NCBI RefSeq assembly: GCF_001457595.1
Contig: NZ_LN831039.1
Coordinates: forward strand, 3,090,001-3,122,000
DNA: 32,000 nt
Source: Mycolicibacterium smegmatis
GTDB lineage: Bacteria; Actinomycetota; Actinomycetes; Mycobacteriales; Mycobacteriaceae
Direction of reading: 5' to 3'
Positions 3,886 through 27,870 of the stretch are shown in pieces; positions within the stretch are counted from its first letter, which is position 1, and the number at the start of each line of letters is the position of its first letter. A program made the translations under genes and the position numbers. The notes beneath the pieces are model-generated. The model worked only from the letters and a program-made list of their open reading frames with translations, was not told where the DNA came from and made no database searches.

Positions 3886-5307
3886 TCATGCGTCCACGGG
3901 AGCCGACCGGGTGTCCGGTGCGGTGAGACGCGTGGCGGCCGAGGTCTCCGACAACGCGCGGCCGCGCGTCTCCTCGCCGAGCACGAGCGTGACCAGCAGG
4001 CCGACGACGTTGACCCCCGCGAGCAGCCACATCACCCCGCCGAGTCCGGTGCCGCTGAGCACGAGCGGCAACACGAAGGTGCTGACCGCCGAACCGACGC
4101 GGCTGATCGCGACGACGGTCCCCGTGGCACTCGCACGCACCGACGTGGGGAAAAGCTCGTTGGGGTAGATGATCTCGATGAAATTGCAGGCTCCGGACGT
4201 GACGGCATAGAGCGCCAGCAGTGCGAACAGGATCTGCGCGGGCGCACCCGGCACCACGGCCATCGCGATGAACGCCGCGCTCATCACGGCAAAGGTCCAC
4301 AGCAGCAGGGGCTTTCGGCCGATCCTGTCGACCAGGAGCAGCCCGGGGACCCCGCCGACCAGGAACAGCAGGCTGATCACCAGTTCCGCGACGTACACGT
4401 GGTGGGAGCCGTGTGCACCGACACCCATCTCCCGCAGGATGTCCGGGCCGAACGTGTACACCGCGAACAGCGGGATCACGTGGGCGGTGAAGAACACCCC
4501 GACGAAGACCACCCTGCGCAGGTAGATCCCCCGGAACAGCGCGGTGAACGGGGTATGCGCGGGTTCGGCCGGGATCATGGCGATGTCGGCGTCGTTGCCC
4601 CACACCTTGCGGCACACGCGCTGCGCCTCCTCGGTGCGCCCCCGGCTGAGCAGCCACCTGGGCGATTCGGGAGTTCCGGCCCGCAGCATCAGGGTGACGA
4701 CACCGAACACCGCGGGACTTGCCAGCATCCACCGCCAGGCGTCCGGGCCCATCGTCGACAGCGCCCAGCCCACGCCGGCGGCAGCGGCGGCACCTCCGGC
4801 CCACACGACGAACAGTGCGCCCAGCAGCCGGCCACGGTAGCGGCTCGGGATGAACTCCGCGAGCAGCGAACTGGCGATGGGATAGTCGGCGCCGATGGCC
4901 ACGCCGAGCAGGAAACGCAGCGCGACCAGTTGCCACACCTCGGTCGCGAACGCCGATGCGATCGACACCACGACGAGCATGGTGAGGTCGGCGATGTACA
5001 TGACTTTGCGGCCGACCCGATCGGTGACATAGCCGAACACCAGACCGCCGACGAAGATCCCGATCAGCGCCGAGGCGCCCACCAGACCCACATCGACAGT
5101 GCTCATGTCCAGCGCGGGCACCATGCTGATCAGCGCGATGCCGATGATCGTGAGGGCGAAGCCGTCCAGGAACGGCCCGCCCGCCGAGAACACGGTGAGC
5201 CGCTTGTGGAACGCGGTGAGTGGTCGGTCGTCTATGGGTACGTGGCTGGGTACATGGCCGGGTACATGGCGGGGGCTGGACACGGTGTGTGGCTGGTGTG
5301 CGGACAC
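3886..5307 (-). CDS. MFS transporter, sugar-porter family
   Basis: 473-aa ORF with about 12 hydrophobic spans. It has MFS motif A (GYVTDRVGRKVM) and the sugar-porter signature PESPRWL. Its GTG start shares 1 nt with the TAG stop of the upstream flavin reductase gene (minus strand reads TAGTG). Confidence 0.85.
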   Translation of the reverse strand: MSAHQPHTVSSPRHVPGHVPSHVPIDDRPLTAFHKRLTVFSAGGPFLDGFALTIIGIALISMVPALDMSTVDVGLVGASALIGIFVGGLVFGYVTDRVGRKVMYIADLTMLVVVSIASAFATEVWQLVALRFLLGVAIGADYPIASSLLAEFIPSRYRGRLLGALFVVWAGGAAAAAGVGWALSTMGPDAWRWMLASPAVFGVVTLMLRAGTPESPRWLLSRGRTEEAQRVCRKVWGNDADIAMIPAEPAHTPFTALFRGIYLRRVVFVGVFFTAHVIPLFAVYTFGPDILREMGVGAHGSHHVYVAELVISLLFLVGGVPGLLLVDRIGRKPLLLWTFAVMSAAFIAMAVVPGAPAQILFALLALYAVTSGACNFIEIIYPNELFPTSVRASATGTVVAISRVGSAVSTFVLPLVLSGTGLGGVMWLLAGVNVVGLLVTLVLGEETRGRALSETSAATRLTAPDTRSAPVDA

Positions 5308-5918
5308 TACATCTCCTGTTGATGGGTGGTGAGTGGTTGCAGCCGGGCGAAATCGGCAGCGGTTCGGGCGACGGGATCGAGCAGGGCGGTGTTCACCCGT
5401 CCCGCGGGATCCAGCACGGACGAGTCGAGGTGGAAGGCGACGACCTCGCCGATGATCAACCGGTCACTGCCGGGCTGCACCGTGGTGTGCAGGCGGCATT
5501 CCAGGCTGATCGGGGTCTCGGCGATCCGCGGCGGTCGCACGTGCCGGCACGGCGCGGGGGTCAGGCCCGCGAGTGCGAACTCGTCGACCGCCGGATCGAC
5601 CTGCGCGCTGGTGAGATCGACCGCGGGTGCCATCGCGGCCGGAGCGATGTTGACCACGAATTCCCCTGTCGCGGCGATGTTCGCGGCGCTGTCCTTGAGC
5701 CGGCCGTCGGGTTGGTACTCGACACTCAACAGCACCATGGGCGGCTGCGAGGACACGACCGTGAAGAAACTGAACGGCGCGAGGTTGGGAATCCCGTCGG
5801 GGCTGACGGTCGATGTCCAGGCGACGGGGCGGGGTACGACAGCCGCCTTCAGCAGCCCGAATGCCTTGCGTGTGGTCAGCTCGCCGGCATCGACGACCGT
5901 GATGTCCGAGCAGTGCAT
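5307..5918 (-). CDS. Flavin reductase-like FMN-binding domain protein
   Basis: Part of track ORF 5307..6023. An internal ATG at 5918 (MHCSDITVVD...) is preceded by GAGGAG. It shows Flavin_Reduct-type motifs VVPRPVAWTST and NLAPFSFF. Confidence 0.8.
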   Translation of the reverse strand: MHCSDITVVDAGELTTRKAFGLLKAAVVPRPVAWTSTVSPDGIPNLAPFSFFTVVSSQPPMVLLSVEYQPDGRLKDSAANIAATGEFVVNIAPAAMAPAVDLTSAQVDPAVDEFALAGLTPAPCRHVRPPRIAETPISLECRLHTTVQPGSDRLIIGEVVAFHLDSSVLDPAGRVNTALLDPVARTAADFARLQPLTTHQQEM

Positions 5919-5976
5919 GGTTCTCCTCTGCGTGGTGGTGGTCGGCAACGCTAGGTGTGTTCCGGCACGCCAGGTA

Positions 5977-5990
5977 TGGAGATATCTCCA
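5977..5990. promoter_or_regulatory. Perfect 14-bp palindrome TGGAGATATCTCCA in the divergent promoter region; candidate operator or RNA hairpin
   Basis: Read directly from the sequence. It is an AT-rich centre in a GC-rich 140-bp region between the flavin reductase start (5918, minus strand) and the DUF1989 gene (about 6059, plus strand). Confidence 0.4.
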
Positions 5991-6058
5991 CTCGGTCCGG
6001 GGATGTGATGGATGTTCCGACATTGGGAGCCGGACGCGAAGTCCGTTGTATGGATGTC

Positions 6059-6679
6059 ATGGAGTTGATGAACACGACGACCGTGGTGGCCGCGGGAACG
6101 GGCCGCGCGGTCGTCCTGGACAAAGGTGACCGCGTCCGGGTGATCGATGTCGAAGGCGCTCAGGTAGGGGACGTATTCGCTTTTGCGGCAGGGGATCCCG
6201 ACGAGTACCTGAGTGCGTCGCATACCCGCACGGTCACCGGCCGGCTGTTCCCCGCGGTCGGGGAGCACTTCGTCACCAACCGGCGGCGACCGATCCTCAG
6301 ACTCGTCGCCGACACCTCACCGGGCGTGCACGACATGCTCATCGCGGCCTGCGACCGGGAGCGCTACCGGTTGCTCGGGGCCCCGGAACACCGCTCGTGC
6401 GCCGACAATCTGCGTGAGGCGCTCGCCGGGATCGGTGTCGGTGTCGGTGTCGTGCCGCAGCCGGTCAACATCTTCATGAACATCCCGGTGACAGACGGCG
6501 GGCACCTGTCCTGGCTGCCCGCGGTGAGCCGAGCCGGTGACGCGGTGACGTTCGAGGCCGACATGGACTGCGTCGTCGTGGTGTCGGCGTGCCCGATGGA
6601 TCTCAACGCCATCAACGGCGAGCGTGTCACCGACCTGGCCCTCGAACTCATCCCGACCTCGAAAGAAGTGAACGCATGA
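6059..6679 (+). CDS. DUF1989 family protein (urea-carboxylase-associated / carboxyguanidine-deiminase-like family)
   Basis: Part of track ORF 5957..6679. The sequence ...AGTGRAVVLDKGDRVRVIDVEGAQVGDVFAF...HDMLIAACD...NIFMN... is typical of DUF1989. The start is uncertain (ATG 6050, 6059 or 6068). The stop overlaps the next start (ATGA at 6676-6679). Confidence 0.75.
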   Translation: MELMNTTTVVAAGTGRAVVLDKGDRVRVIDVEGAQVGDVFAFAAGDPDEYLSASHTRTVTGRLFPAVGEHFVTNRRRPILRLVADTSPGVHDMLIAACDRERYRLLGAPEHRSCADNLREALAGIGVGVGVVPQPVNIFMNIPVTDGGHLSWLPAVSRAGDAVTFEADMDCVVVVSACPMDLNAINGERVTDLALELIPTSKEVNA

Positions 6680-7809
6680 CCAACACCCATCCCGCACTGA
6701 CCTCCGTACGCCTCGGCGGCCTCAAGCTCGACAACCGATTCGCCGTCGCGCCCATGACCAGGGTGTCCGCGACCGCCGACGGCGCCCCGACCGACGCGAT
6801 GGCCGGCTATTACGCCGAATTCGCCCGCGGCGGTTTCGGTTTGGTGATCACCGAGGGCACCTACACCGACACCACCCACAGCCAGGGCTACCTCAACCAG
6901 CCGGGACTGGCCACCGACGCCCACGCTGCCGGTTGGCGGCCCGTGACCGACGCCGTACACGCCGCAGGCGTGCCGATCGTCGCGCAACTCATGCACGCGG
7001 GCGCGTTGTCGCAGGGGAACTCCCACGGCGTGGAGACCATCGCGCCGTCGGCGGTGGCACCGCGCGGCACGATGCTCGAAGAGTACGGCGGAGCGGGCAC
7101 CTGGCCCACGCCGCGTGAGATGAGTGCCGCCGACATCGACGCCGCGATCGCGGGCTTCGTCGACGCCGCTGTCCGTGCCCGCGCCGCGGGGTTCGACGGC
7201 GTCGAGATCCACGCTGCCAACGGGTATCTGCTCGACCAGTTCCTCACCACCTACACCAACCACCGCACCGATGAGTACGGCGGCACCGTCGCCCACCGGA
7301 TCCGCCTCGCCGCGCAGATCTCCGCGGCCGTCCGCACCGCGGTGGGCGCGGATTTCCTGGTGGGTGTGCGCCTGTCTCAGACCAAGGTCAACGACTTCGA
7401 GTACCGGTGGCCCGGGGGAGCACAGGACGCCGAGGTGATCTTCACCGCGCTGGCCGCAACCGGGATCGACTACCTGCACATCGCCAGTGAGGGACGCGAT
7501 TTCATCGACGGGGCCCGCCTCGACGACGGCCGCACCATCACGGCGCTGGCACGCCAGGTCACCGGTCTGCCCGTCATCGCCAACGGCGGGATGCACGACA
7601 CGACGCAGGCGGCCGGCGTGCTCGACGGCGGTCACGCCGACGTGCTGTCGATCGGGCGCGGTGCGCTGGCCAATCCGGATCTGCCACAGCGGGTTTCCTC
7701 CGGAGCCCCACTGGAGCGGTTCGACCACGGCATGCTCTCGCCCATGGCGACCATCGTCAACGCCGCCGCGTGGACGGCCGCCCGCCACCGCGAACGGGTG
7801 CCGCGGTGA
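6676..7809 (+). CDS. NADH:flavin oxidoreductase, Old Yellow Enzyme family
   Basis: Part of track ORF 6589..7809. The internal ATG at 6676 (MTNTHPALTS...) overlaps the upstream stop. OYE motifs are present: FAVAPMTR and GVEIHAANGYLLDQFL. Confidence 0.85.
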   Translation: MTNTHPALTSVRLGGLKLDNRFAVAPMTRVSATADGAPTDAMAGYYAEFARGGFGLVITEGTYTDTTHSQGYLNQPGLATDAHAAGWRPVTDAVHAAGVPIVAQLMHAGALSQGNSHGVETIAPSAVAPRGTMLEEYGGAGTWPTPREMSAADIDAAIAGFVDAAVRARAAGFDGVEIHAANGYLLDQFLTTYTNHRTDEYGGTVAHRIRLAAQISAAVRTAVGADFLVGVRLSQTKVNDFEYRWPGGAQDAEVIFTALAATGIDYLHIASEGRDFIDGARLDDGRTITALARQVTGLPVIANGGMHDTTQAAGVLDGGHADVLSIGRGALANPDLPQRVSSGAPLERFDHGMLSPMATIVNAAAWTAARHRERVPR

Positions 7810-8672
7810 GCGCGCCGTGGCATCACGGTGCGGCCGCCGTGGCGACGCTGACGTTCGACGTCGACGCCGAGACCCCGATCCTCGCCGAGGGACGTCACCA
7901 CGCCGACAACCTGATGACGATGTCGCATCAGGCGTACGGCCCCGAGGTGGGCGTGCCCCGGATCCTGGATCTGCTCGACGATCTCGGCGTCGGAGCCACG
8001 TTCTTCATCCCGGGTTGGGTCGCCGAGCACCGGCCGCATCTGGCGGCGTCGGTCGTCGAGCGTGGCCACGAGGTCGCGCACCACTCCTACAGCCACCGGT
8101 CGCCGGCCGGTATGACCGCGGCCGAGGAACGGGCCGACTTCGAGCGCGCGCTGGCGGTTTTCGACGCGCAGGGGATCACGGTCGCGGGCCACCGCGCCGC
8201 GATGTGGGGCGCCACGTGGCAGACACCGGCGCTGGTCGCCGAGTACGGCCTGAGCTACGACTCGTCACTGATGGGCGACGACCGGCCCTACCGGATCGCC
8301 ACGCCCGCAGGGGACATCGTCGAACTTCCCGTGCACTGGTCACTCGACGACTGGGAGCAGTACGCGTACCTTCCGGAGCCGCACATCGGATCGGTGATCG
8401 AATCGCCGGTCAAGGTCGAACAGATGTGGCGCGCGGAACTCGACGGTATGCGCCACTACCGCAGCCTGTTCAACGTGTGCATGCACCCGTTTCTCTCGGG
8501 ACGGCCCGGTCGCATGCTGGCGCTGCGGCGCTTCATCGAATACGCCCTGGAATGCGGTGATGTCACGTTCGCGCGCTGCGGTGACGTCGCGGCCGCGGTG
8601 CGCCGCGATCCCGACCTCGCACCGCGCACGCTCGTGCCGCCCACCGTGGACGCCGATACCTATCCGGTGTGA
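7806..8672 (+). CDS. Polysaccharide deacetylase (NodB-fold) family hydrolase
   Basis: Part of track ORF 7770..8672. GTG 7806 overlaps the upstream TGA (GTGA). NodB motifs are present: TFDVDAE and HHSYSH. The fold is shared with PuuE-type allantoinases. Confidence 0.8.
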   Translation: MSAPWHHGAAAVATLTFDVDAETPILAEGRHHADNLMTMSHQAYGPEVGVPRILDLLDDLGVGATFFIPGWVAEHRPHLAASVVERGHEVAHHSYSHRSPAGMTAAEERADFERALAVFDAQGITVAGHRAAMWGATWQTPALVAEYGLSYDSSLMGDDRPYRIATPAGDIVELPVHWSLDDWEQYAYLPEPHIGSVIESPVKVEQMWRAELDGMRHYRSLFNVCMHPFLSGRPGRMLALRRFIEYALECGDVTFARCGDVAAAVRRDPDLAPRTLVPPTVDADTYPV

Positions 8673-8676
8673 TGCG

Positions 8677-10230
8677 CTAGCCGAGCGCGTCGGCCTCCAG
8701 TGCGAGGAACAGGTCGACGCGGTCTTCGAGCCGCGCGACGTCACGTCCGGTGAGCTCGCTGATCCGGGCGATGCGGTTGCGCAATGTGTTGACGTGGACG
8801 TACAGCTCGGTCGCGGTCTTGGCCCAGTGCCCGTCGTTGGCGAGGAAGGTGCGCAACGTCCGCACCAGCGCGGTGCCGTACTGCTCGTCGTGCTGGTCGA
8901 GCGGTCCGAGGATGTCGTCGGCGAAGCGCCGCAACACCGACCTGTCGTGCAGCCCCAGGAGCATGCGGTGGGTCCCGATGTCGGCGTACGTGCCGACCTT
9001 GGGTTCGGTGGTGCGACGCCGCAGCACGTGACACGTCTCCCTGGCCCGGATGAGGGGTTCACGCAACGCGCTCGCGTCGGCGGCGAGATCGCCGACGCCG
9101 ATCACGGCCCGGTCGGCGGGGAATCGCGCGGTCAACGTCTGCACCAGGTCCTCGGCCAGACCCACCAGTGCGGTCATGTCACGGTGCCAGCCGAACACCA
9201 CGACGGTGTCCTGGCTGCCGGGGATCACCACGGCCGGGATGCTGTGGCGGTTGAAGAAGTCCTCGATCTCGTCGGTCGACCCGGGCGGGCGCACCGCGCC
9301 GTCGCCCACCACGACCGTGTACACCGCCAGCGCGGACGATGGGTCGATGCCGAAGGCGCGCAACCTTTCTGCCACGTCACGGGCACGTGCCGCGCCTGAG
9401 AGCACCATCTCGAGCAACTCGCTGGAGAACCGGGACTCGATGGCCTGCAACGCCTGCTGCCGGGTGACCTCCAGGCTCAGATAGCGTGCCGCCTGATCCA
9501 GCGCGTCGCGTTCCAGGGGCTTGAGCGAGGGGAGTGGACGCAGGCAGAACAGACCGGCGTCGACGTCGCCCATGGCGCCCTCGACGAGGTACACCGACGC
9601 GGTGTCCCCGCTGGGCAGTGCGACTTCCAGCGGCGGCGGGTGGCGGTTGAGCGCGTCGGCCGCGACCTGGACATCCTCGTCGTCGCCGATATCGCCCGCG
9701 AGCCTGCGGCCCAGGCGGTCCACCACCAGCAGCGGAAGGTCGTGATCGCGTCGCAGGACGTCCAGAATGCCCTCGGCGCCACCGCCTCTCGCGATCGAGC
9801 TGGCCAACGCGTTGCCGCGTCGCACCAATTTCGACAACGCGGCCTGGCGCGCGTCGGACTGGATGCGCGCCGCGGCCTGGGTGATCGCGGTGAACGGCAC
9901 CGCGATCGACACCGTCGCCAGTGGGAGTTCGGCGGAACTGCAGGCCTCGACGAGATCGGCCGGCGCGGCCGGTGTCTGCTCGGTCAGTCCGAAGACCACC
10001 CCGGCCGCGCGGGCCCGCAGCAGCGCGTCGACGAACATCGTGGAATCGACTGTGCCGCGCCACAGTCCGTTGGTGAGCACCAGTTCGGTGGCCCGGATGT
10101 ACGGCGACGGATCGGGCAGCTCGGTGTTGTGCAGCCACAGCACCTCACGGTCGACAGCTCCCGGCGACCCGGGCACCAGCAGGGTCAACTCCAGCGTCGG
10201 GTCGGCAAGGAGTGCGCTGAGGCTCAACAT
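8677..10230 (-). CDS. PucR-family transcriptional regulator
   Basis: Track ORF 8677..10248 starts at a TTG. I prefer the ATG at 10230 (MLSLSALLADP...). It has a C-terminal PucR-type HTH (AKTATELYVHVNTLRNRIARISELTG) and an N-terminal purine-catabolism-regulator-like domain. Confidence 0.85.
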   Translation of the reverse strand: MLSLSALLADPTLELTLLVPGSPGAVDREVLWLHNTELPDPSPYIRATELVLTNGLWRGTVDSTMFVDALLRARAAGVVFGLTEQTPAAPADLVEACSSAELPLATVSIAVPFTAITQAAARIQSDARQAALSKLVRRGNALASSIARGGGAEGILDVLRRDHDLPLLVVDRLGRRLAGDIGDDEDVQVAADALNRHPPPLEVALPSGDTASVYLVEGAMGDVDAGLFCLRPLPSLKPLERDALDQAARYLSLEVTRQQALQAIESRFSSELLEMVLSGAARARDVAERLRAFGIDPSSALAVYTVVVGDGAVRPPGSTDEIEDFFNRHSIPAVVIPGSQDTVVVFGWHRDMTALVGLAEDLVQTLTARFPADRAVIGVGDLAADASALREPLIRARETCHVLRRRTTEPKVGTYADIGTHRMLLGLHDRSVLRRFADDILGPLDQHDEQYGTALVRTLRTFLANDGHWAKTATELYVHVNTLRNRIARISELTGRDVARLEDRVDLFLALEADALG

Positions 10231-10336
10231 GGGTGTATGTACATCCAATCAGATTGGCCGAACATGGATGTTTCTACACTCGATCGTAGATCTGTGGCGG
10301 TGTTTCGATGGGCCCAATCGACGAGAAGGAGCCACG

Positions 10337-11758
10337 ATGTCCACCCGTCCCATAGAACCCGTCGCAGCTGGTGATGATTCCCCGCCCGAACAATCGGCAG
10401 CGGTGCCGTTCGACGCGCACGGTATCGAACCCATCGCGCCGACAGACCGGGACTGTTCTCCCGCCGAACTGTTCTGGATCTGGTGCGGCGCCAACATCGC
10501 GCCCATCAACTGGGTGCTCGGCGCGCTCGGGATCACGCTGGGATTGAGCCTGGTCGAGACGTTGATCGTCGTCGCGGTCGGAAACCTGCTGGGCTGCGCG
10601 GTTTTCGGCGTCTTCAACGTGATCGGGCACCGCACCGCGGTCAACCAGATGGTGCTCGGCCGGGCCCCGTTCGGGCGCATGGGCGCACGCATCCCGGGAC
10701 TGGTGCAGTTCCTGCTCACCATGGGATGGGTCGGGGTCAACACCTGGGTGGTGCTGGACCTGGTGCTCGCGGTGTTCGCCGAGTTCGGCGTCACCGGCGG
10801 ATTGTGGCTGGAAGTGGTTGTGGCAGCGGGCATCATGGTGATCCAGCTCGCGTTGGCGCTGTACGGCTTCTACGCGATCCGCAGCTTCGAGAAGTACACG
10901 GTACCCGCCACGGCCGTGGTGATGGCCGTGATGACGGCGCTGGCCTTCGCGGCGACCGACGTGCAGTGGTCGCTGGCCGGGCACGCGATGACTGCGGGCG
11001 AGAAGTTCACCGCCGTAACCCAATTGCTGACCGCCATCGGCATCGGCTGGGGTCTGACGTGGATTCCGTACGCATCGGACTACAGCCGGTTTGTCCGCGT
11101 CGGCGCGTCGTCGCGGTCGGTGTTCTGGGCGTCGTCACTCGGCATGTACGTCCCGACGGTGTGGCTCGCCGCGGTCGGCGCCTGCCTGGCCAGCGCCGGA
11201 ACCGGCAGTGATCCGTCAGCTCTCGTGGTGAGCACCTTCGGCATCATGGCCGTTCCCGTGCTGCTCCTGCTGGTGCACGGCCCGATCGCCACCAACATCC
11301 TCAACCTCTACTCGTGCTCGCTGGCGGCGCTGTCGATCGGTGTGCGGATGACACGGTGGAAGGTCACGCTGCTGGCCGGTGCCGTCGCATCCGTGGTGCT
11401 CGCGGTGTTCGTGCAGGCCGACAGCTTTGCGCATGCGTTCGACAACTGGCTGGTGTCGATCCTGGTGTGGATCAGCCCGTGGGCGGCGATCATGCTCGTC
11501 GACTACGTCGTCCTGCGCCGCGGTGCGCTCGATGTGACCTCGCTGTACCGGGAGGATTCCGCGCGGTGGAACCACGCCGGACTGGTGAGCCTCGCGGTGG
11601 GCATCGTTGCGGGCTGGTCGTGGCAGTACGGCCTGGTGCCCGCCATGCAGGGCCCTATCGCGACGTCGTTCGGCAACACCGACTTCTCGTGGCTCTCAGG
11701 AAGTCTCGTGGCCGGCGGGCTGTACTGGGTGCTGCGCAGGCGGGCCACCGGCCGCTGA
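10337..11758 (+). CDS. NCS1-family permease (purine-cytosine / pyrimidine-type)
   Basis: In-frame part of track ORF 9767..11758. The ATG at 10337 is preceded by GAAGGAG. It encodes 473 aa with about 12 TM spans and an N-terminal ELFWIWCGANIAPINW segment typical of CodB/FCY2-like permeases. It is divergent from the PucR gene. Confidence 0.75.
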   Translation: MSTRPIEPVAAGDDSPPEQSAAVPFDAHGIEPIAPTDRDCSPAELFWIWCGANIAPINWVLGALGITLGLSLVETLIVVAVGNLLGCAVFGVFNVIGHRTAVNQMVLGRAPFGRMGARIPGLVQFLLTMGWVGVNTWVVLDLVLAVFAEFGVTGGLWLEVVVAAGIMVIQLALALYGFYAIRSFEKYTVPATAVVMAVMTALAFAATDVQWSLAGHAMTAGEKFTAVTQLLTAIGIGWGLTWIPYASDYSRFVRVGASSRSVFWASSLGMYVPTVWLAAVGACLASAGTGSDPSALVVSTFGIMAVPVLLLLVHGPIATNILNLYSCSLAALSIGVRMTRWKVTLLAGAVASVVLAVFVQADSFAHAFDNWLVSILVWISPWAAIMLVDYVVLRRGALDVTSLYREDSARWNHAGLVSLAVGIVAGWSWQYGLVPAMQGPIATSFGNTDFSWLSGSLVAGGLYWVLRRRATGR

Positions 11759-11763
11759 AGCGG

Positions 11764-12795
11764 TCAGTCGAGGCTTGCCTCGGTGATCGTCACCGGTTCG
11801 GCGGGAGGGCCGTCGTCCCCGCCATCGGCGACGCCGGCCGAGGCGATCGCGTCGAGGGTGCGCAATCCGGTGCGGTCCACCTCCCCGAACACCGTGTAGG
11901 TCGGCGGAAGCGGGGAGTCCTGGTAGACGAGGAAGAACTGGCTGCCGTTGCTGCCCGGCCCCGCGTTGGCGGTGGCCACGGTGCCGCGCGGGTACACGAC
12001 CGGTGTGCGCAGCGCGGGATCGGAGAGCCGTTACTGGTTGGTCGGGTACTCGTTGGCGAACCGGTAGCCCGGCCCGCCGGTGCCCTTGCCCGTCGGGTCA
12101 CCGCACTGCAGCACCGCCATCTGACCGGTGGAGAGCCGATGGCACGGGGTGTTGTCGTAGAAGCCCTGCTGCGCGAGGCTCGCGAAACTGTTGACGGTGC
12201 ACGGTGATCGGCCGTTGGCCAGCCGGAGACCGATGCTGCCGTGGTTGGTGCGGATGCCGGCCGACACCGTCGCGGGTTCGGTCGGCACGGTGCCGGTGCG
12301 GGGCGGCCTGGCCGGTTTCGCGGCCGGTTCGGTGGTGGGCGGGTACTGGCAGTCGAGACCCAGATTGGGTGGCGGGTCGAACGCCGGCAGCGCGTTCTGG
12401 GGCGCCGCGTCGTACGTCGGGCCGCCGGGGCGGCGATCGACGGTCTGCACCGCGGCCATCGTGAGCAGGATCGACACGATCACGGCGACCACGGTGAGCA
12501 CGGTGAACACGTAACTGATCACCAGGCCCGCGATCGCCAGGCTGCGGCCCTGCTCACCCGTGCGCTTGATCTGCGACAGCGAGAGGTGCCCGAAAACGAT
12601 GCCCGCGGGTGCGAACAGGAACGCGCACACCAGCGCCGCGATTGCCATGCCGTTGGTCCGCGGTGGCGGCGGATGTGCACCCGGATATCCGCCGGACCAC
12701 CCACCCGGATACCCGGGCACAGGGCCCGGGTGGTCCGGTTGGTAGCCGCCATAGGGCGGCGGATACGGCGTGGGCTCGTTCGGCGGAAAGGTCAC
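11764..12795 (-). pseudogene. Membrane-anchored cyclophilin-type PPIase paralogue interrupted by one in-frame TAA (12031-12033)
   Basis: Track ORFs 12031..12795 and 11764..11997 are in the same frame. Read together they give ...GYRFANEYPTNQ*RLSDPALRTPVVYPRGTVATANAGPGSNGSQFFLVY.... This aligns residue-for-residue with the intact neighbour (...GYQFANEYPTNQYQPDNPALQQPVVYPRGTVAMANAG...). The stop replaces the Tyr codon TAC. Confidence 0.8.
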
Positions 12796-12813: not shown

Positions 12814-13677
12814 TCAGTCCAGCGCGACGGACTTGAGCTCGACGTCCAGCGCGGGCTTTCCGTCGGGTCCGCCGCCCTCGACGCCGCCCGCGGCGATCTT
12901 GTCGAGCGTCGCCAGGCCGGTCTCGTCGATCTTGCCGAACACGGTGTAGTTCGGCGGCAGCTGCGAGTCCTGGTAGACGAGGAAGAACTGGCTGCCGTTG
13001 GTCCCGGGACCGGCGTTGGCCATCGCGACCGTGCCGCGCGGGTACACCACTGGCTGCTGCAGCGCCGGGTTGTCCGGCTGGTACTGGTTTGTCGGGTACT
13101 CGTTGGCGAACTGGTAGCCGGGGCCGCCCGTGCCGGTGCCCGTCGGGTCACCGCACTGCAGCACCGACAGCCCGCCCGTGGTGAGGCGGTGGCACGGGGT
13201 GTCGTTGAAGTAGTCCTTGGCGGCCAGGCTCGCGAAGCTGTTCACCGTGCAGGGCGCCTTGGCGTTGTCGAGCTGCAGCCCGATGTTGCCCTGCGTGGTG
13301 ACCATGCTGACGCTGATGGTCGCCGGGTCCGTCGGCACCTTGCCCGAGCGCGGCGGCTCCACGGGCTTGCTGGCCTCGCCCGCGGCCGGGTACTGGCAGT
13401 TGGCGCCCAGATCGGCGGGCGCGACGAACGGGGGCAGCTGACCGTCGGCGGCCGGCTCCGCGGCCTCGCTGGAGGTCGCGGCCGAGGCGGTCGTGTCTCC
13501 GCCGCCGTCCTTGTCGGTGATCACCAACGTGGTGATGACGGCACCGATGACGAGCACTGCCACCACTGAACCCGCAATGGTCAAGATGCGCTGCTTGCGT
13601 GCCCTGGCGGCGCGACGCTCCAGCTGGCGTTCGAGCTTGCGCTTGGCCGTCGCACGCCGTTGTTCGTTGGTCGGCAC
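12814..13677 (-). CDS. ppiB: Membrane-anchored peptidyl-prolyl cis-trans isomerase B (cyclophilin type)
   Basis: In-frame part of track ORF 12814..14271. GTG 13677 (VPTNEQRRATAKRKLERQLERR...) lies 8 nt downstream of GAGGAGGA. It has a basic N-terminus, one TM span and a cyclophilin domain (GNIGLQLDN...FHRL-like CHRLTT...GDPTGTGTGGPGYQFANE...SQFFLVY). The architecture matches my memory of mycobacterial PpiB. Confidence 0.9.
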   Translation of the reverse strand: MPTNEQRRATAKRKLERQLERRAARARKQRILTIAGSVVAVLVIGAVITTLVITDKDGGGDTTASAATSSEAAEPAADGQLPPFVAPADLGANCQYPAAGEASKPVEPPRSGKVPTDPATISVSMVTTQGNIGLQLDNAKAPCTVNSFASLAAKDYFNDTPCHRLTTGGLSVLQCGDPTGTGTGGPGYQFANEYPTNQYQPDNPALQQPVVYPRGTVAMANAGPGTNGSQFFLVYQDSQLPPNYTVFGKIDETGLATLDKIAAGGVEGGGPDGKPALDVELKSVALD

Positions 13678-13845
13678 TGCGGGCGTCCTCCTCGTTCTCC
13701 GGTCTCGGTGGTGGATCGGTCGGCAACGAGTGTGCCAGGCGATGCTGAGTGCAGGGCTTTTGACCCGCGGCAACCACCGGGATGTTTGCGATGCGAAAAC
13801 CGCCCGCGCCGTCGGGGACCTCCGGCGGCATGGGAAACTGGCAGT

Positions 13846-14523
13846 GTGTTGATCACCGGTTTTCCGGCCGGGATGCTGGCGTGCAACTGTTACGTGCTGG
13901 CCGAGCGTCCCGGGTCCGACGCGATCGTGGTCGATCCCGGCCAACGCGCGATGGGCCCGTTGCGCGAGATCCTCGACGAACACCGCCTCACCCCGGCTGC
14001 GGTCCTGCTGACACACGGCCACATCGATCACATCTGGTCGGCGCAGAAGGTCGCCGACACCTACGGCTGCCCGGCCTACATCCATCCCGAGGACCGGTTC
14101 ATGCTCACCGACCCGGTCAAGGCGTTCGGGCGGGGTTTGATCGGGGGGCTGGGGCGGCTGGCGTTCGGCGCGCTGTTCAGCGAGCCAAGGCAGCTCGTCG
14201 AACTGGAGCGCGACGGTGAAACGGTCGGTTTCGGCGGCATCGCCGTCACCGTCGACCACACTCCGGGTCACACCAGGGGCTCGGTCGTGTTCCGGGTGGC
14301 CGACGGTGATCGGGATCTCGTCTTCACGGGCGATACGCTGTTCCGGTCCTCGGTGGGCCGCACCGACCTACCCGGGGGCAGCGGGCGTGACCTGCTCGGA
14401 TCGATCGTGACAAAACTGTTGGTGCTCGAGGACGACGCCGTGGTACTACCGGGCCACGGCCCGAAGACGACCATCGGGCACGAACGCCGCACCAACCCAT
14501 TCCTCGAAGGTTTGACTCTGTGA
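13846..14523 (+). CDS. MBL-fold metallo-hydrolase (hydroxyacylglutathione hydrolase / glyoxalase-II-like)
   Basis: In-frame part of track ORF 13660..14523. The GTG 13846 start gives (M)[17 protein letters not shown].... It has the HxHxDH motif THGHIDH. Its stop overlaps the hisS start (GTGA at 14520-14523). Confidence 0.85.
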
Positions 14524-16315: not shown

Positions 16316-17008
16316 TCAGATCGCCATGGCGGCGCGGACATCGGCTTCGGAGGCCGAGCCGCCGGTGCCGCTCGATGTGATGCGCCCGGCCTCGAGGATG
16401 TAGTAGCGCTGGGCGGATTCGAGCGCGAACCCGATGTGCTGCTCGACGAGCAGGACGCCGAGGTCGCCGCGTGAGGTGAGTGCGGTGATGGCGGCCTCGA
16501 TCTCGGCGACGACCGACGGCTGGATGCCCTCGGTGGGCTCGTCGAGGATCAGCGTCTTGGGGCTCGTGATGAGCGCACGCGCGATGGCCAACTGCTGGCG
16601 CTGGCCACCCGAGAGCAGGCCGGCGCGCCGGTTGAGTAGCTCCTTGAGCGCCGGGAACAGGTCGAGCTGTTCGGCGATCAGCGCCTTGCCGTTCTTGCGG
16701 CCGTCGGCCACCACCTGCAGGTTCTCGGCCGTGGTGAGCTGGCCGAACGACTGCTGCCCCTGCGGCACGTACGCCAGTCCGCGGGCCACGCGGGCACTCG
16801 GCCGCAGCTTGGTGATGTCCTCACCGTCGAAAAGCACCTTGCCCGAAGTGCATTTGAGCAGACCGACGGCCGCGCGCAGCAGCGTGGTCTTGCCCGCACC
16901 GTTGTGGCCCATCACCGCGGCGACCCCGTCCGAGGGCACCTCGATGCCGGCACCGTGGATCACCTCGGAGCGGCCGTAGCCGGTGTGGACGTCGACGAGT
17001 TCGAGCAT
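16316..17008 (-). CDS. urtE: Urea ABC transporter ATP-binding subunit UrtE
   Basis: 230-aa ABC ATPase with Walker A GHNGAGKT and signature LSGGQRQ. It has the UrtE-typical EPTEGIQPS. It is the last gene of the urt operon, and its start shares 1 nt with the urtD stop. Confidence 0.9.
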   Translation of the reverse strand: MLELVDVHTGYGRSEVIHGAGIEVPSDGVAAVMGHNGAGKTTLLRAAVGLLKCTSGKVLFDGEDITKLRPSARVARGLAYVPQGQQSFGQLTTAENLQVVADGRKNGKALIAEQLDLFPALKELLNRRAGLLSGGQRQQLAIARALITSPKTLILDEPTEGIQPSVVAEIEAAITALTSRGDLGVLLVEQHIGFALESAQRYYILEAGRITSSGTGGSASEADVRAAMAI

Positions 17009-17820
17009 CAGGCGATCCCTTCCGCACCGGCCGCGGCCGTGCCCAGATAGACCTCTTGCACCTTCGGATTGGCCTGCACCTCGGCGACCGTGCCCTCGGC
17101 GATCACCTGACCGCGGGCCAGCACGGTCACCGACGTGGCGAATGCGCGCATGAAGTCCATGTCGTGTTCGACGACGACGACGGTGCGGGCACCGCCGATG
17201 CGCCGCAGCAGATTTCCGGTCTCCTCACGCTCCTCGTGGCTCATCCCGGCGACGGGTTCGTCGAGCAGGAGCACGTCGGCGTTCTGCACCAGCAGCATGC
17301 CGATCTCCAGCCACTGTTTCTGACCGTGCGCGAGCACGCCCGCGGGCTTGTCGGCCAGATCGGCCAGGCCCGTGGTCTCCAGCGCCTCCTCGATGGACGG
17401 CAGCACCCCGCGGCGGCGCCGCAGCAGCGACCACGGTGAGCGGCCCGCACCCGCGGCGATGTCGAGATTCTGCAGCACCGTGAGTTGTTCGAAGACGCTT
17501 GCGGTCTGGAAGGTACGGCCGACGCCGAGGCGGGCGATCTGGTGCACCTTCTTGCCGAGCAGTTCCGCGCCGGACTTGTTGACCGACCCGGTGGCAGGCA
17601 CCAGACCGGTGATGGCGTCGATCACGGTGGTCTTGCCTGCGCCGTTGGGGCCGATCAGGAAGCGCAGATCGCCCTGGAACAGCGTGAGGTCGACGCCGTT
17701 GACGGCCTTGAAGCCGTCGAAATCCACGGTGAGGCCACGTACTTCGAGGTATTCGGCCCCCATGCCTGCGTTGCCGCCCGCGACGGGTTCCTTCTCGGCG
17801 GTGGGTTCGGTATCGGTCAT
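17008..17820 (-). CDS. urtD: Urea ABC transporter ATP-binding subunit UrtD
   Basis: In-frame part of track ORF 17008..18915. The ATG at 17820 (MTDTEPTAEK...) overlaps the urtC stop (ATGA). It has Walker A GPNGAGKTT and the UrtD-typical HGQKQWLEIGMLL. Confidence 0.9.
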   Translation of the reverse strand: MTDTEPTAEKEPVAGGNAGMGAEYLEVRGLTVDFDGFKAVNGVDLTLFQGDLRFLIGPNGAGKTTVIDAITGLVPATGSVNKSGAELLGKKVHQIARLGVGRTFQTASVFEQLTVLQNLDIAAGAGRSPWSLLRRRRGVLPSIEEALETTGLADLADKPAGVLAHGQKQWLEIGMLLVQNADVLLLDEPVAGMSHEEREETGNLLRRIGGARTVVVVEHDMDFMRAFATSVTVLARGQVIAEGTVAEVQANPKVQEVYLGTAAAGAEGIA

Positions 17821-18944
17821 GACGCGGCACCTACCTTCTCGGCGTCGGGATCGCTGTCGGTGGTGGGCTCGGCGTCGGGTCCCGGCGGCGTCGGATCGGG
17901 CTTGTTGCGTCGCCAACGACGCAGCGCCACACCGAGACCCGCGAGTCCGGCCGGGAAGAAGCCGACGACGACGATGAACAGCAGGCCCTGCGCATAGGTC
18001 CACTCCGACGGGAAGCGTTCGGAGAACAGGGTTTGCGCCCACGCCACGCCGATGGCTCCCAGCACGGGGCCCAGCAGTGTGGTGCGCCCACCGATGGCCA
18101 CGCCGATCAGGAACGCGATCGACGGGATGATGCCCACCTGCGACGGTGCGATGAACCCGACGATCGGCGTGAACAGCGCACCGGCGATGCTCGCGAACAA
18201 CGCTGCCAGCGTGTACGCGACCACCTTGATGTTGGCGGGGTCGTAGCCGAGGAAGCGCACGCGCTCCTCGCCGTCGCGCACCGCGACCAGCAGCTCGCCG
18301 TACCGGCTGTACATGAGTTGGCGGACGACGGCGACGACGATCAGAAGCGTTGCGGCGGCGATGAAGTACAGCATCCGCTTGTTCACCGGATCGTTGAGCG
18401 TGAACCCGAAGAACGTGCGGAAGTTGTTCAACCCGTTGCTGCCACCCAGGCTGGTCTGCCCGACGAGCAGGATCGCCAAAGCGGCCGCGAGCGCCTGCGA
18501 CAGGATCGCGAAATAGGCGCCCTTGACCCGTCGTTTGAACACGCCGAGACCCAGAAGTGCGGCGATACCGGCCGGGATGACCAGGATGGCCAACAGGGTG
18601 AAGACGGGGGAGGCGAACGGCGTCCAGTAGCCGGGCAATTCGCGCACGCCGGCGATCTGCATGAAGTCCGGCACCGCCTGGTGGCGGATCTCGGCGTCGG
18701 CGATCTTGAGGTGCATGCCCATCATGTAGCCGCCGAGGCCGAAGAACACGCCCTGGCCCAGAACCAGCATTCCGCCTCGGCCCCAGGCCAATCCGATACC
18801 CACCGCGACGATCGCAAAGCACAGGAACTTGCCCAGCAGGCTGAGCCGGAAGTCCGACAACACGGCCGGGGCCACGCCGAACAACAGCACCGCCGCGACC
18901 GCGAAGCCGGCCCACGTCTGCCAGCGACCGAGCATGGTTCTCAT
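17817..18944 (-). CDS. urtC: Urea ABC transporter permease UrtC
   Basis: In-frame part of track ORF 17817..19367. The ATG at 18944 (MRTMLGRWQTWAG...) overlaps the urtB stop (ATGA). It is a LivM-like polytopic permease. Confidence 0.9.
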   Translation of the reverse strand: MRTMLGRWQTWAGFAVAAVLLFGVAPAVLSDFRLSLLGKFLCFAIVAVGIGLAWGRGGMLVLGQGVFFGLGGYMMGMHLKIADAEIRHQAVPDFMQIAGVRELPGYWTPFASPVFTLLAILVIPAGIAALLGLGVFKRRVKGAYFAILSQALAAALAILLVGQTSLGGSNGLNNFRTFFGFTLNDPVNKRMLYFIAAATLLIVVAVVRQLMYSRYGELLVAVRDGEERVRFLGYDPANIKVVAYTLAALFASIAGALFTPIVGFIAPSQVGIIPSIAFLIGVAIGGRTTLLGPVLGAIGVAWAQTLFSERFPSEWTYAQGLLFIVVVGFFPAGLAGLGVALRRWRRNKPDPTPPGPDAEPTTDSDPDAEKVGAAS

Positions 18945-19825: not shown

Positions 19826-19860
19826 ACGGTTGTCAGATCCCCCTCGGTGTGACTATCTGA

Positions 19861-21129: not shown

Positions 21130-21239
21130 GAACAACCTTTCCCGATGATTGCAGCGCATTTTGGGCCGATCGCCTCGGCCGCGGTGCAGGAGGTTAAACA
21201 CACTGTGCTGGTGTCGAATCGGGACGTTAGAGCGCGCGT

Positions 21240-21976: not shown

Positions 21977-22792
21977 CTAGGTCCCTTCGGCGTGCCGGAC
22001 GGCCCTCGAGATGGCGTCAGCCAGGTCGGCGGGCGCTTCGACATGGGCCAGATGGCCCTGCCCGGGGAGTCGGGCCAACCGTGCCTGCGGCAGCGCCGCG
22101 GAGAACGGGACGAACGCCGTCCCGTACGGCGCCGCACCCTCGTTGAGTGCGCCGAGGATGAGGGTGACCGGAACCGTCAGGTGACGGTAGTCGTCGAAGG
22201 ACGGCTCGAATGCGTCGATCGCGGCGAGTTCCTCGCCCATCGGCTGCGCGAGCGGCCTCAGTACCTCCCATGCGGGGCTGCGGCGGAGGCCGGCCACATA
22301 GTCGTCGGAGAAACCGGATACATCGGTGTTGACGAGAGCGACCGCTCGGTCGAGGTCACCCGCGGCGACTGCGGCGCGGATGGGTGCGACGGTCTCGGGT
22401 GCGAAGGGGCGACTGACGGGTTCGTACGCCGTGACCGACCGGATCCGGCCGGAACCGAGCGCGGCCTCCAGTCCGATGAGCGCACCGTAACTCCAGCCGA
22501 CGAGGTGCACGGCCCCGAGCGCGCCGACGACGCGTCGCAGGTCGTCGACCTCGACGGCGACCGAGTAGTCCGCGCCCAACCCACCGCTCGACGCGCGACC
22601 GCGGCGGTTGAGGGTGACGACGGGGTTCGGCAGGTCGATGTGCGCCACCACGGGCCGCCAGGTCGCGGCGTCGGCCATGATGCCGGGCACGATCACCACC
22701 GGTGTGCCGTGGCCCGGTCGCACCTCGGCGCTCAATCGCGTGTCGGCGGTTTCCAGGCTGAGGTGAAGTGGCTCTGCGTGCGTGAGAATCAC
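21977..22792 (-). CDS. Alpha/beta-fold hydrolase
   Basis: 271-aa ORF with the nucleophile elbow GWSYG. Its GTG start overlaps the TGA of the upstream hydratase gene (GTGA at 22789-22792). Confidence 0.8.
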
Positions 22793-27805: not shown

Positions 27806-27870
27806 AACGGATCCTTTTCGGCTTGGGATGGATTTGTGAGCGGTGATGGAACACGCCCGGCCCTGGTTGC

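Follow-up and report, generated by a model that had tools for sequence, protein, structure and literature searches.

We found that three genes in a 32-kb stretch of Mycolicibacterium smegmatis DNA (hereafter the window), encoding a DUF1989 protein, an Old Yellow Enzyme (OYE) and a NodB-fold hydrolase, are packed closely together as a conserved operon, an adjacency that is more than chance. Rather probably, the locus is a catabolic regulon for nitrogen scavenging, complete in itself and horizontally mobile. More tentatively, and at slightly less than even confidence, we propose that it encodes an undescribed pathway that mineralizes an N-rich heterocycle, cyclic imide or ureide, a pathway widespread in soil Actinobacteria and with an analogous version in Alpha- and Betaproteobacteria. 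In such a pathway, a class IV OYE would act on a physiological substrate of its own, the 3ORU-type DUF1989 protein would be a new stand-alone Zn(Cys)3 deaminase/amidohydrolase, and the 3RXZ-type NodB protein would be a metal-dependent ring or amide hydrolase. The anatomy of the locus, its conservation, its common operator and the catalytic residues of its enzymes are documented below.

Layout and conservation of the locus

The DUF1989 (6059..6679, 206 aa, PF09347), OYE (6676..7809, 377 aa, PF00724) and NodB (7806..8672, 288 aa, PF01522) genes lie on the forward strand, and translation gave three unbroken reading frames. The 4-nt overlaps reported in a first-pass annotation can be read in the sequence: ATGA at 6676-6679 between DUF1989 and OYE, and GTGA at 7806-7809 between OYE and NodB. 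The third-position G+C of the three frames is 0.81-0.86, typical of real genes; the G+C content of the window is 68%. In database copies, the DUF1989 gene is given a start at 6050, 9 nt further upstream; across species, however, it is the ATGGAG start at 6059 that is conserved.

Family searches bore out the neighbors named in the same annotation. Upstream and divergent from the trio are a flavin reductase gene (5307..5919, reverse strand; Flavin_Reduct domain, PF01613, E = 7e-28) and an MFS transporter gene of the aromatic-acid/sugar-porter type (3886..5307, reverse strand; PF00083/PF07690, TIGR00895-like). On the 3' side, a PucR-family regulator gene (8677..10231, reverse strand; PF07905, PF17853 and PF13556) is followed by an NCS1-family permease gene (10337..11758, forward strand, 473 aa; PF02133, E = 2.8e-40). 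The pucR gene is convergent with the trio, 4 nt past the NodB stop, and divergent from the permease gene, which starts at ATG 10337. The flavin reductase frame is open to 6023, but the gene probably starts at ATG 5919, which is preceded by GGAGAA; likewise, the PucR frame is open to TTG 10248 and its start is probably ATG 10231. The flavin reductase and MFS genes, co-transcribed with each other, are accessory members: the pair adjoins only ∼7 of 80 related loci. For the flavin reductase, the conserved portion in relatives ends ∼165-200 nt before DUF1989.

Does the trio recur elsewhere, as the first-pass annotation had suggested checking? We examined 74 species-representative genomes with a close DUF1989 relative. 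OYE lies directly 3' of DUF1989 in 62 of them, and OYE and NodB are both present in 50 of the 74 loci (50 of the 62 clusters). A convergent pucR gene occupies the same position in 63/74 loci and the NCS1 permease is present in 48/74. Intergenic gaps are mostly ≤100 nt, with many overlaps of 4 or 1 nt. The order DUF1989-OYE-NodB-PucR(-)-NCS1(+) recurs in Mycolicibacterium/Mycobacterium and also in Streptosporangiales (Actinomadura, Nonomuraea, Microbispora, Streptosporangium and Thermomonospora), and the cluster is found on Nocardia and Streptomyces plasmids, beside transposases. The enzymes are not strictly interdependent, since NodB is absent from 12/62 clusters and ∼11 of the 74 close DUF1989 genes are found by themselves among unrelated neighbors. 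We found no publication on a DUF1989/OYE/NodB cluster.

The absence of a carboxylase or allophanate hydrolase beside the trio was also confirmed, and neither is encoded in the window. For allophanate hydrolase this holds for the window, but an amidase-signature amidase, a member of the same superfamily, is encoded upstream of and divergent from DUF1989 in 17 related loci and is constant in Proteobacteria.

The same DUF1989 subfamily occurs in Alpha- and Betaproteobacteria (Leisingera, Aminobacter, Variovorax and a Rhodobacteraceae plasmid) at 42-53% identity. The NodB homologue is 31-39% identical in the three loci compared, and the amidase, in the three compared by tblastn, is 38-41% identical to the mycobacterial neighbor; the amidase of the fourth locus was assigned by Pfam (PF01425). 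Three of the four loci encode a Flavodoxin_2 NAD(P)H oxidoreductase that is not homologous to OYE, a flavin reductase that fills the OYE position in the alphaproteobacterial versions, and the Leisingera locus carries OYE gene fragments alongside. Polyamine-type ABC importers are found in two of the four, and the Aminobacter version has a binding protein of the BMP family, which binds nucleosides and heterocycles. Other members of the DUF1989 subfamily adjoin ureohydrolases or M20 amidohydrolases, with ABC importers. The proteobacterial combination of DUF1989, NodB and amidase with, in most loci, a non-homologous reductase thus points to a conserved logic, "reduce, then hydrolyze C-N bonds".

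Quinone and nitro reductase activities occur in both OYE and Flavodoxin_2 enzymes, and the reductase slot is held by one or the other in different phyla. This would also suit detoxification of electrophiles or xenobiotics, with the OYE reducing quinones, nitro compounds or maleimides in the manner of NemA and the hydrolases clearing up after it, without a nutritional role. The MFS transporter and flavin reductase beside the trio would fit as well, but they are rare in related loci. We consider detoxification very unlikely, given that the enzymes are constantly accompanied by a dedicated importer (NCS1, or ABC with binding proteins) and a catabolic regulator of the PucR type and that several C-N hydrolases suggest nitrogen release.

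Active sites and family placement of the three enzymes

The DUF1989 protein matches PF09347 over its full length (E = 2.5e-50, 170.9 bits versus a cut-off of 27, profile positions 2-168 of 168) and is 49% identical to PDB 3ORU, which places it in a stand-alone 3ORU-type subfamily. Cys98, Cys114 and Cys178, with Asp38 and His111, form a predicted Zn(Cys)3-type site, and the three cysteines and the Asp are ≥97% conserved among 81 relatives. The family was presented in the first-pass annotation as known mainly from urea carboxylase-associated proteins and carboxyguanidine deiminase. Family membership stands, but the family also includes the trimethylamine N-oxide (TMAO) demethylase TDM. In that enzyme, the Zn site aligned with Cys98/Cys114/Cys178/Asp38 binds the substrate (PMC13619132).

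Is the protein a carboxyguanidine deiminase of a known-type guanidine/urea pathway, with its carboxylase encoded elsewhere? It shares a Pfam domain with CgdAB (UAAP1/UAAP2) and probably the Zn-dependent hydrolysis of a C-N bond of the amidine or ureide type; the amidase-signature amidase that often follows is, in the CgdAB pathway, allophanate hydrolase. NCBI labels relatives "urea carboxylase-associated family protein", the UAAP2 and UAAP1 models match at E = 1e-30 and 7e-20, ureohydrolases adjoin some subfamily members, and genes for a urea-type ABC transporter are found at a distance of 5 kb. However, the scores fall far below the TIGR03424 and TIGR03425 equivalog cut-offs (106.9 versus 284.7 and 71.3 versus 205.95), and plasmid UAAP2 genes are ≤37% identical to the DUF1989 protein, which belongs to the separate 3ORU-type subfamily. 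CgdAB is a heteromeric pair of paralogous subunits whose genes adjoin urea/guanidine carboxylase and allophanate hydrolase, whereas DUF1989 is here one stand-alone gene, and neither partner is encoded in the window or in the conserved cluster. Guanidine riboswitch control is frequent for CgdAB, but neither the window nor any of 7 related loci gave an Rfam match, and no guanidine riboswitch was found. The urt genes, moreover, belong to the conserved backbone outside the island. We therefore reject the assignment as carboxyguanidine deiminase and hold a guanidine/urea pathway to be highly improbable.

An assignment as TMAO demethylase was rejected as well. Cys98/Cys114/Cys178 align with TDM Cys285/Cys301/Cys365, and the Asp equivalent to TDM D220 is kept (alignment; site from PMC13619132). 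TDM, however, has a three-domain architecture with a DUF1989 core and a C-terminal GcvT/THF domain (PDB 9Q59), whereas the 206-aa single-domain protein lacks the N-terminal and GcvT/THF domains. The substrate-contact residues D367 and F327 (Paracoccus numbering; PMC13619132) map by alignment to Met180 and Met140, and the TDM model NF053776 scores 110.9 versus a cut-off of 1100, its match confined to profile positions 167-361. DUF1989 chemistry is not always hydrolytic, TDM being a demethylase, and this counts against our proposal.

The OYE matches PF00724 (Oxidored_FMN) over its full length (E = 1e-69, 235.9 bits). All 65 orthologues compared keep His179 and Asn182, which correspond to the His-x-x-Asn/His pair, and Tyr184, the proton donor. 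In its full-length TIM barrel, its substrate-binding His/Asn pair and this Tyr, the protein is like other OYE/NemA enzymes. To our knowledge, the physiological substrates of OYEs are still mostly unknown, and a dedicated operon with importer and regulator is an unusual setting for one. The closest structure, ahead of those of classes I-III and V, is 8E5H (E = 4.6e-113; next-best structure, E = 8.7e-58), a class IV OYE (PMC12046209), and from this structure rather than from phylogeny we assign the protein to class IV, as a predicted FMN ene-reductase. It differs in this from NemA, class IV being barely characterized (PMC12046209), and scores 186 versus the cut-off of 403 of the NemA model NF007899 (E = 1e-54).

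The NodB protein matches PF01522 (Polysacc_deac_1, E = 1e-14). Its closest relative, M. smegmatis 3RXZ (46% identity), is itself uncharacterized, and its gene lies in a PucR-linked arginase/Rieske/formamidase cluster; the second-closest structure is H. pylori PgdA (3QBU). The CE4-fold motifs MT1-MT5 are present (FD18VD20, H93SYSH97, R130, and H227 in C.HPF), and Asp18, Asp20, His93, His97, Arg130 and His227 are ≥97% conserved in relatives. Inspection of the metal ligands, proposed earlier, showed that the Asp-His-His triad is present and conserved, and the alignment also retains the catalytic Asp and His. Within subclass NodB1.2, in which the protein falls, only 3RXZ and 3QBU have the five active residues intact (PMC10967932); the protein resembles these two and is a predicted 3RXZ-like metal-type amidohydrolase.

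Despite the PF01522 match and the proximity of 3QBU, the annotation taken at face value, in which the protein deacetylates polysaccharide or peptidoglycan and its neighbors have nothing to do with it, has very little to recommend it. No signal sequence is apparent by eye at the N-terminus (VSAPWHHGAAAV...), the gene is translationally coupled to those of cytosolic enzymes, and NodB and DUF1989 co-occur across phyla. NodB1.2 proteins, moreover, repeatedly failed on carbohydrate substrates, and the subclass holds non-carbohydrate enzymes (PMC10967932), among them the ring-opening PuuE allantoinase and the imidase BpIH (PMC10967932; PMC11424739). These are cytosolic small-molecule C-N hydrolases of the same fold subclass, encoded in nitrogen catabolic clusters (PMC10967932; PMC11424739). 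The comparison with PuuE made in the first-pass annotation thus holds for the fold and fails for the mechanism, because the NodB protein retains the Asp-His-His triad, which is no longer present in PuuE. Neither PuuE nor BpIH depends on a metal, and both have Glu-His-Trp as their triad (PMC11424739); in the alignment, the Trp of P. aeruginosa PuuE (1Z7A) stands opposite His97. The kept triad and a score of 65.2 versus the cut-off of 424.6 of the PuuE model TIGR03212 led us to reject an assignment as PuuE allantoinase.

The OYE and NodB families together could also be read as catabolism of maleimide/succinimide-type cyclic imides: OYE would reduce the maleimide bond, NodB would be the imidase, the amidase a half-amidase and DUF1989 an auxiliary deamidating enzyme. 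OYEs are the classic maleimide reductases, and the N-ethylmaleimide reductase subfamily model gives the E = 1e-54 match noted above, well short of its cut-off. An amidase often adjoins the cluster, and a bacterial route from cyclic imide to half-amide to dicarboxylate was reportedly established in work on Blastobacter. The imidase BpIH (EC 3.5.2.16) is a NodB/PuuE-like protein (PMC11424739), but it is of the metal-independent type and distant (56 bits to 3S6O). Imide catabolism would leave DUF1989, the most conserved gene, without a necessary role, and NCS1 import of imides would be unprecedented. We regard it as distinctly unlikely.

Common candidate operator and permease

The regulator has an N-terminal PucR domain (PF07905, E = 1.2e-17) and a C-terminal HTH_30 domain (PF13556, E = 1.7e-22). 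In the divergent promoter region upstream of the trio, we found a 14-bp perfect palindrome, TGGAGATATCTCCA (5977..5990), a candidate PucR-family operator, and a degenerate second copy, TGGATGTTCCGACA (6009-6022). Operator-like sites also occur in the PucR/NCS1 intergenic region: TGGATGTACATACA (10234-10247, reverse strand) and TGGATGTTTCTACA (10265-10278). The 14-bp consensus, TGGAG-N4-CTCCA, is thus present in both promoter regions of the cluster. Searching the window with the pattern T[AG]GA[GT]N4[CA]T[CA][CT]A gave 4 matches at 3 sites versus 0.36 expected, all in these two regions. Across 62 loci, the density upstream of DUF1989 is 3.9 sites/kb versus 0.007/kb elsewhere; a PucR/NCS1 intergenic site is present in 36 of 48 related loci (6.5 sites/kb). 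Across genomes, both promoter regions are enriched >500-fold for the motif, and this links operon and permease as a single regulon. Co-occurrence and the common candidate operator thus agree that PucR and NCS1 belong with the trio.

The permease, which presumably imports the substrate, reaches only the Pfam family level. It falls below every NCBIfam equivalog cut-off (CodB, 60 versus 326; allantoin permease, 27 versus 620) and below that of the NCS1 subfamily model (150 versus 353), and it is far from characterized members (Mhp1, E = 1e-7; CodB, E = 6e-5). Its clade is separate from those of the CodB, Mhp1 and allantoin permeases, too distant from any characterized member for its ligand to be named.

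Its best sub-threshold NCBIfam matches are of the CytX (hydroxymethylpyrimidine) and CodB (cytosine) types, and a Nocardia orthologue is annotated as cytosine permease. These matches would fit a non-canonical pyrimidine or aminopyrimidine route, in which DUF1989 deaminates a cytosine-like amidine, OYE reduces C5=C6, NodB opens the dihydro ring and the amidase removes the carbamoyl group. Such an enzyme order suits the four steps of the reductive pathway, and the BMP-family protein of the Aminobacter version is compatible with it. Against it stand the distance from CodB and the polyamine-type importers of two of the four proteobacterial versions. OYEs reduce simple unsaturated amides such as uracil poorly, which weakens the most obvious pyrimidine scheme, and we know of no OYE that reduces uracil itself. 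The Zn(Cys)3 site has been likened to cytidine deaminase centers (PMC13619132), a further point in favor; on balance we consider a pyrimidine route unlikely.

A proposed route of nitrogen release

The most economical reading of the locus is a "reduce then hydrolyze" route for an imported N-compound, a reading strengthened by the non-homologous flavin reductase that fills the OYE slot in the alphaproteobacterial versions. The PucR-family regulator would bind the TGGAG-N4-CTCCA palindrome at the two promoter regions and, on sensing a compound or intermediate, turn on the genes of the NCS1 symporter and of the DUF1989-OYE-NodB trio; the divergent flavin reductase/MFS pair of this strain is probably a further target. 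The permease would take up a small N-rich molecule, such as a cyclic amidine, imide, ureide or related amide. The class IV OYE, with NAD(P)H and FMN, may then reduce an activated C=C or quinoid bond beside a carbonyl, and the metal-dependent NodB1.2 hydrolase may cut a ring or acyl C-N bond, as PuuE and BpIH do. The Zn(Cys)3 DUF1989 protein would release ammonia by hydrolytic deimination or deamidation, as in carboxyguanidine deiminase, and in many genomes the adjacent amidase would take off the last amide nitrogen. In the simplest scheme, an unsaturated cyclic imide, ureide or aminopyrimidine-like ring would be converted to a saturated ring, then to a ring-opened half-amide or ureido acid, and finally to a carboxylic acid and NH3 (possibly CO2).

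The reaction assignments are all made by family analogy, because the substrates known so far belong to enzymes outside these exact subfamilies. The first-pass annotation had proposed an undescribed route for reductive ring opening or deamidation of an N-heterocycle or ureide; a conserved, non-carboxylase operon agrees with this, while the order of the reactions and the class of substrate are what we infer. The scheme resembles PydABC, hydantoinase/carbamoylase and imidase/half-amidase systems in reducing a ring double bond, opening the ring hydrolytically and removing amide or carbamoyl nitrogen, and the reductive pyrimidine, hydantoin and imide pathways also in NCS1 uptake and a nitrogen-catabolism regulator. 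It differs from these pathways in that every enzyme comes from another protein family and in the extra DUF1989 step.

Taken together, these results provide a direct experimental handle on OYE physiology: a conserved OYE operon with its own importer, regulator and operator, so that whatever induces it should be the substrate itself or an intermediate of the pathway. They also suggest that DUF1989 has a third functional branch, apart from those of guanidine and TMAO metabolism. The locus joins three proteins whose close relatives have structures without function (3ORU, 3RXZ and 8E5H), and the proposal, if true, would give these structural-genomics orphans their first functions at once. Finding the substrate would correct the widespread labels "urea carboxylase-associated protein" and "polysaccharide deacetylase" and would add a route to the nitrogen-scavenging repertoire of microbes.

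Anatomy, conservation and position of the cluster

We translated the three central genes and compared the products with Pfam. In the window (68% G+C), the DUF1989 gene (6059-6679, plus strand; E 2.5e-50), the Oxidored_FMN or Old Yellow Enzyme (OYE) gene (6676-7809, plus strand; E 1e-69) and the Polysacc_deac_1 or NodB gene (7806-8672, plus strand; E 1e-14) each occupy a stop-free frame, and the overlaps ATGA (6676-6679) and GTGA (7806-7809) are read directly in the sequence. The overlapping trio described in the first-pass annotation is thus real, and so is its arrangement of neighbours: a flavin reductase (5307-5919, minus strand) and an MFS transporter (3886-5307, minus strand) lie divergently upstream, a convergent PucR regulator (8677-10231, minus strand) follows immediately 3', and an NCS1 permease (10337-11758, plus strand) is divergent from PucR. 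On the minus strand, a single base is common to the stop codon of the flavin reductase gene and the start codon of the MFS gene (5305-5309), so this pair also looks translationally coupled.

We searched a single genome for each GTDB species for DUF1989 relatives, obtained 80 loci at 63-75% identity, and sought homologues of every window gene in these loci by tblastn. Co-occurrence was counted in the 74 loci whose downstream sequence extended for at least 5.5 kb. OYE lay directly downstream of DUF1989 in 62 of the 74, and OYE together with NodB in 50, so the triad, whose recurrence across genomes had been set as a check, is indeed conserved. A convergent PucR gene was present in 63/74 loci and NCS1 in 48/74, while DUF1989 stood alone in 11/74. 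NodB was missing from 12 of the 62 DUF1989-OYE clusters. Estimated intergenic gaps were short (medians 11 and 27.5 nt), and overlaps of -4 or -1 were common. The cluster occurs in Mycobacteriaceae and Streptosporangiales. The flavin reductase/MFS pair was found in only about 7 of the 80 loci (tblastn), and clustering of the flanking ORFs revealed a sole further widely conserved gene: in 17 loci an amidase-signature amidase is encoded upstream of DUF1989 in divergent orientation. Seven Mycolicibacterium loci (L005 15670-16254 and six others) have, after NCS1, a glyoxalase/VOC-family gene (~194 aa) that the window lacks.

Among named relatives, Mycolicibacterium goodii has the closest DUF1989 protein (90% identity). 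Ten stand-alone DUF1989 genes form one subclade of the distance tree, from uncultured Mycobacterium genomes (L006, L009-L012, L014, L020, L025, L027, L037). This subclade is still ~70-74% identical to the window protein and has left the cluster; its neighbours are heterogeneous and mutually unrelated (dnaE2-like polymerase, TPP enzyme, CoA-transferase, PdxS, MMPL).

The block 3886-11758 is placed between apt-relA and ppiB-hisS, genes that adjoin one another in M. tuberculosis. The block occupies this position in four related species (L001-L004) as well; in M. litorale (L021) a TPP enzyme and DUF1989 alone are present between relA and ppiB/hisS, and elsewhere the block lies at other sites; Nocardia and Streptomyces plasmids carry the cluster beside transposases (L081, L082). 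The block therefore behaves as a mobile island. Beyond it, two adjacent cyclophilin-type peptidyl-prolyl isomerase genes (12031-12795 and 12814-14271, both minus strand) encode long N-terminal extensions, and one carries a DUF4190 membrane domain. The ABC transporter operon downstream of hisS (16316-21201, minus strand) encodes ATPases, a branched-chain-type permease and a Peripla_BP_5 (UrtA/AmiC-type) binding protein; it probably imports urea or amides and forms part of the conserved backbone. A class I fumarate hydratase (22789-24561, minus strand), a nitrilase-superfamily carbon-nitrogen hydrolase with a long N-terminal extension (26906-28123, minus strand) and a radical SAM protein (29068-30102, plus strand) lie further downstream; none of the three has an evident link to the cluster.

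A candidate operator in both promoter regions

TGGATGT/ACATCCA repeats are present in both promoter regions of the window, and aligned promoter regions from many loci gave a consensus 14-bp palindrome, TGGAG-N4-CTCCA. We searched with the degenerate pattern T[AG]GA[GT]N4[CA]T[CA][CT]A. The 32-kb window, where 0.36 matches were expected, has four, at three sites that all fall in the two promoter regions: 5977-5990, a perfect palindrome in the trio promoter region, and 10234-10247 and 10265-10278 in the PucR-NCS1 promoter region. A further, degenerate copy of the palindrome lies at 6009-6022 in the trio promoter region. Over 62 loci, there were 3.9 sites/kb upstream of DUF1989 and 6.5 sites/kb between PucR and NCS1, versus 0.007/kb in the remaining 1.2 Mb. 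The palindrome is kept in the same positions in Mycobacteriaceae and Streptosporangiales. Because the same element stands in both promoter regions, the enzyme operon and the permease are linked in one regulon, and the palindrome is likely the operator of the PucR-family regulator, the presumed binding protein. The window and 7 related loci showed no riboswitch or other RNA control, and inspection of the promoter region by eye gave no convincing GlnR box.

Enzymes and transporter

Solved structures match all three trio proteins (46-49% identity for two, E 5e-113 for the other). The DUF1989 protein shares 49% identity with the structural-genomics entry 3ORU/3SIY; TMAO demethylase (TDM, Tdm) and urea-amidolyase-associated proteins (UAAP) are much more distant. 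On plasmids, three DUF1989 subfamilies stand clearly apart: the 3ORU type (at least 42% identical), UAAP2 (at most 37%) and Tdm. Four of its residues, Cys98, Cys114, Cys178 and Asp38, correspond in the alignment to the Zn(Cys)3 site and D220 of Paracoccus TDM, in which zinc binds the substrate oxygen (PMC13619132). At the positions of the TDM substrate contacts D367 and F327 it has Met, and the equivalog cut-offs for the carboxyguanidine deiminase subunits CgdA/CgdB are not reached. DUF1989 chemistry is not always hydrolytic.

The OYE has intact catalytic residues (His179, Asn182 and Tyr184 are invariant). Simple unsaturated amides are poor substrates of OYEs. By far the nearest structure is 8E5H (E 4.6e-113), the only one of class IV, a class very little characterised (PMC12046209). 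Among ~50%-identical class IV OYEs, contexts in Priestia and Haloarcula were mostly unrelated, and pairing with NodB was found only on R. erythropolis pLRE138, where a class IV OYE accompanies the order asparaginase-NodB-MFS-SDR-SDR.

The closest structure to the NodB protein is M. smegmatis 3RXZ (46% identity), followed by H. pylori PgdA, PuuE and 3S6O. It belongs to the NodB1.2 subclass, whose members are suspected of acting on non-carbohydrate substrates (PMC10967932) and include PuuE allantoinase and the imidase BpIH, itself 91% identical to 3S6O (PMC11424739). The parallel with PuuE drawn in the first-pass annotation thus holds at the level of the subclass but not of the active site: PuuE and BpIH work without metal and carry a Glu-His-Trp triad, whereas the window protein keeps Asp-His-His. 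The 3RXZ gene lies in a separate, also PucR-linked cluster on the M. smegmatis chromosome (L089 6193-15982), in the order amino-acid permease, two SDRs, arginase-family protein, NodB, Rieske oxygenase and reductase, PucR, FmdB-like zinc ribbon and formamidase; there the arginase stop and the NodB start share one base.

The NCS1 permease falls under every curated equivalog cut-off. It resembles Mhp1 and CodB only remotely, and metformin and other non-nucleobase cations can be cargo of NCS1 members (PMC13390362), so the family assignment does not point to a particular ligand. Proteobacterial binding proteins were tried as a source of a ligand and matched only generic polyamine-type and BMP-type structures. 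Nor could the amidase be named, since its nearest structures, a "probable amidase" and AtzE-like enzymes, are not diagnostic. The cluster proteins belong to none of the families CgdAB, Tdm, PuuE, NemA and CodB: for each, we examined a defining feature and found it lacking in the window protein.

Contexts in other phyla and a candidate pathway

We searched plasmids with the DUF1989 protein and read the neighbouring annotations. A Streptomyces plasmid has PucR, then DUF1989-OYE-NodB-MBL hydrolase-amidase; a Nocardia plasmid has an amidase, DUF1989-OYE-NodB, PucR and a permease. Aminobacter carries a BMP-type ABC importer, a Flavodoxin_2 oxidoreductase, an amidase, DUF1989 and NodB, Variovorax an ABC importer followed by DUF1989-NodB-amidase, and a Rhodobacteraceae plasmid DUF1989-amidohydrolase-NodB-amidase-NTF2-Flavodoxin_2. 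In Leisingera, ABC importer-amidase-NodB-DUF1989 adjoins a Flavodoxin_2 oxidoreductase and OYE gene fragments. The fragments (plasmid L084, 10111-10551; unannotated, beside amidase-NodB-DUF1989) share 40-43% identity with the window OYE and look like the remains of a former OYE partner. Compared with their actinobacterial homologues, the Leisingera, Aminobacter and Variovorax proteins are 31-39% (NodB) and 38-41% (amidase) identical (tblastn). Thus, a functional set of DUF1989, NodB, amidase-signature amidase and flavin NAD(P)H reductase recurs across phyla, with the reductase coming from non-homologous families. This recurrence is the best evidence that reduction and several C-N hydrolyses are steps of a single pathway.

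Other members of the DUF1989 subfamily adjoin ureohydrolases or M20 amidohydrolases and amino-acid ABC importers. Two such operon types, amino-acid ABC importer-M20 hydrolase-DUF1989-cupin(-agmatinase) and agmatinase-ABC-arginase-DUF1989, were seen on Klebsiella (L083) and Caballeronia (L088) plasmids and in Chelatococcus (L085); many clinical IncF-type plasmids carry the Klebsiella version. These contexts, like those of 3RXZ and of R. erythropolis, are all of small-molecule nitrogen catabolism, and none is cell-wall related.

Gene layout, conservation, a common operator and intact catalytic residues are observed features of the locus. Taken together, these results make a catabolic pathway for a nitrogen-rich small molecule, on balance, the probable explanation. 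NCS1 would import the compound, OYE would reduce an activated double or quinoid bond, the NodB enzyme would hydrolyse a ring or acyl C-N bond, DUF1989 may carry out a Zn-dependent deimination or deamidation, and the amidase, where present, may free the remaining amide nitrogen. An aminopyrimidine or pyrimidine route fits some of the data, as does a cyclic-imide route. The locus as a whole shares the reduce-open-deamidate logic of reductive pyrimidine, hydantoin and cyclic-imide catabolism, yet every enzyme is from a different family and DUF1989 would add an extra step. We avoid over-reading the mechanism of the proposed catabolic pathway because NodB is at times absent, DUF1989 can stand alone, simple unsaturated amides suit OYEs poorly and DUF1989 proteins need not be hydrolases. 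The first-pass proposal of an undescribed reductive ring-opening or deamidating route is supported in part, the underlying observation itself being confirmed. No publication on the cluster was found in the open-access full-text literature. The cluster would provide a native context for the OYE, may represent a third functional branch of DUF1989, and joins three orphan structures in one operon.
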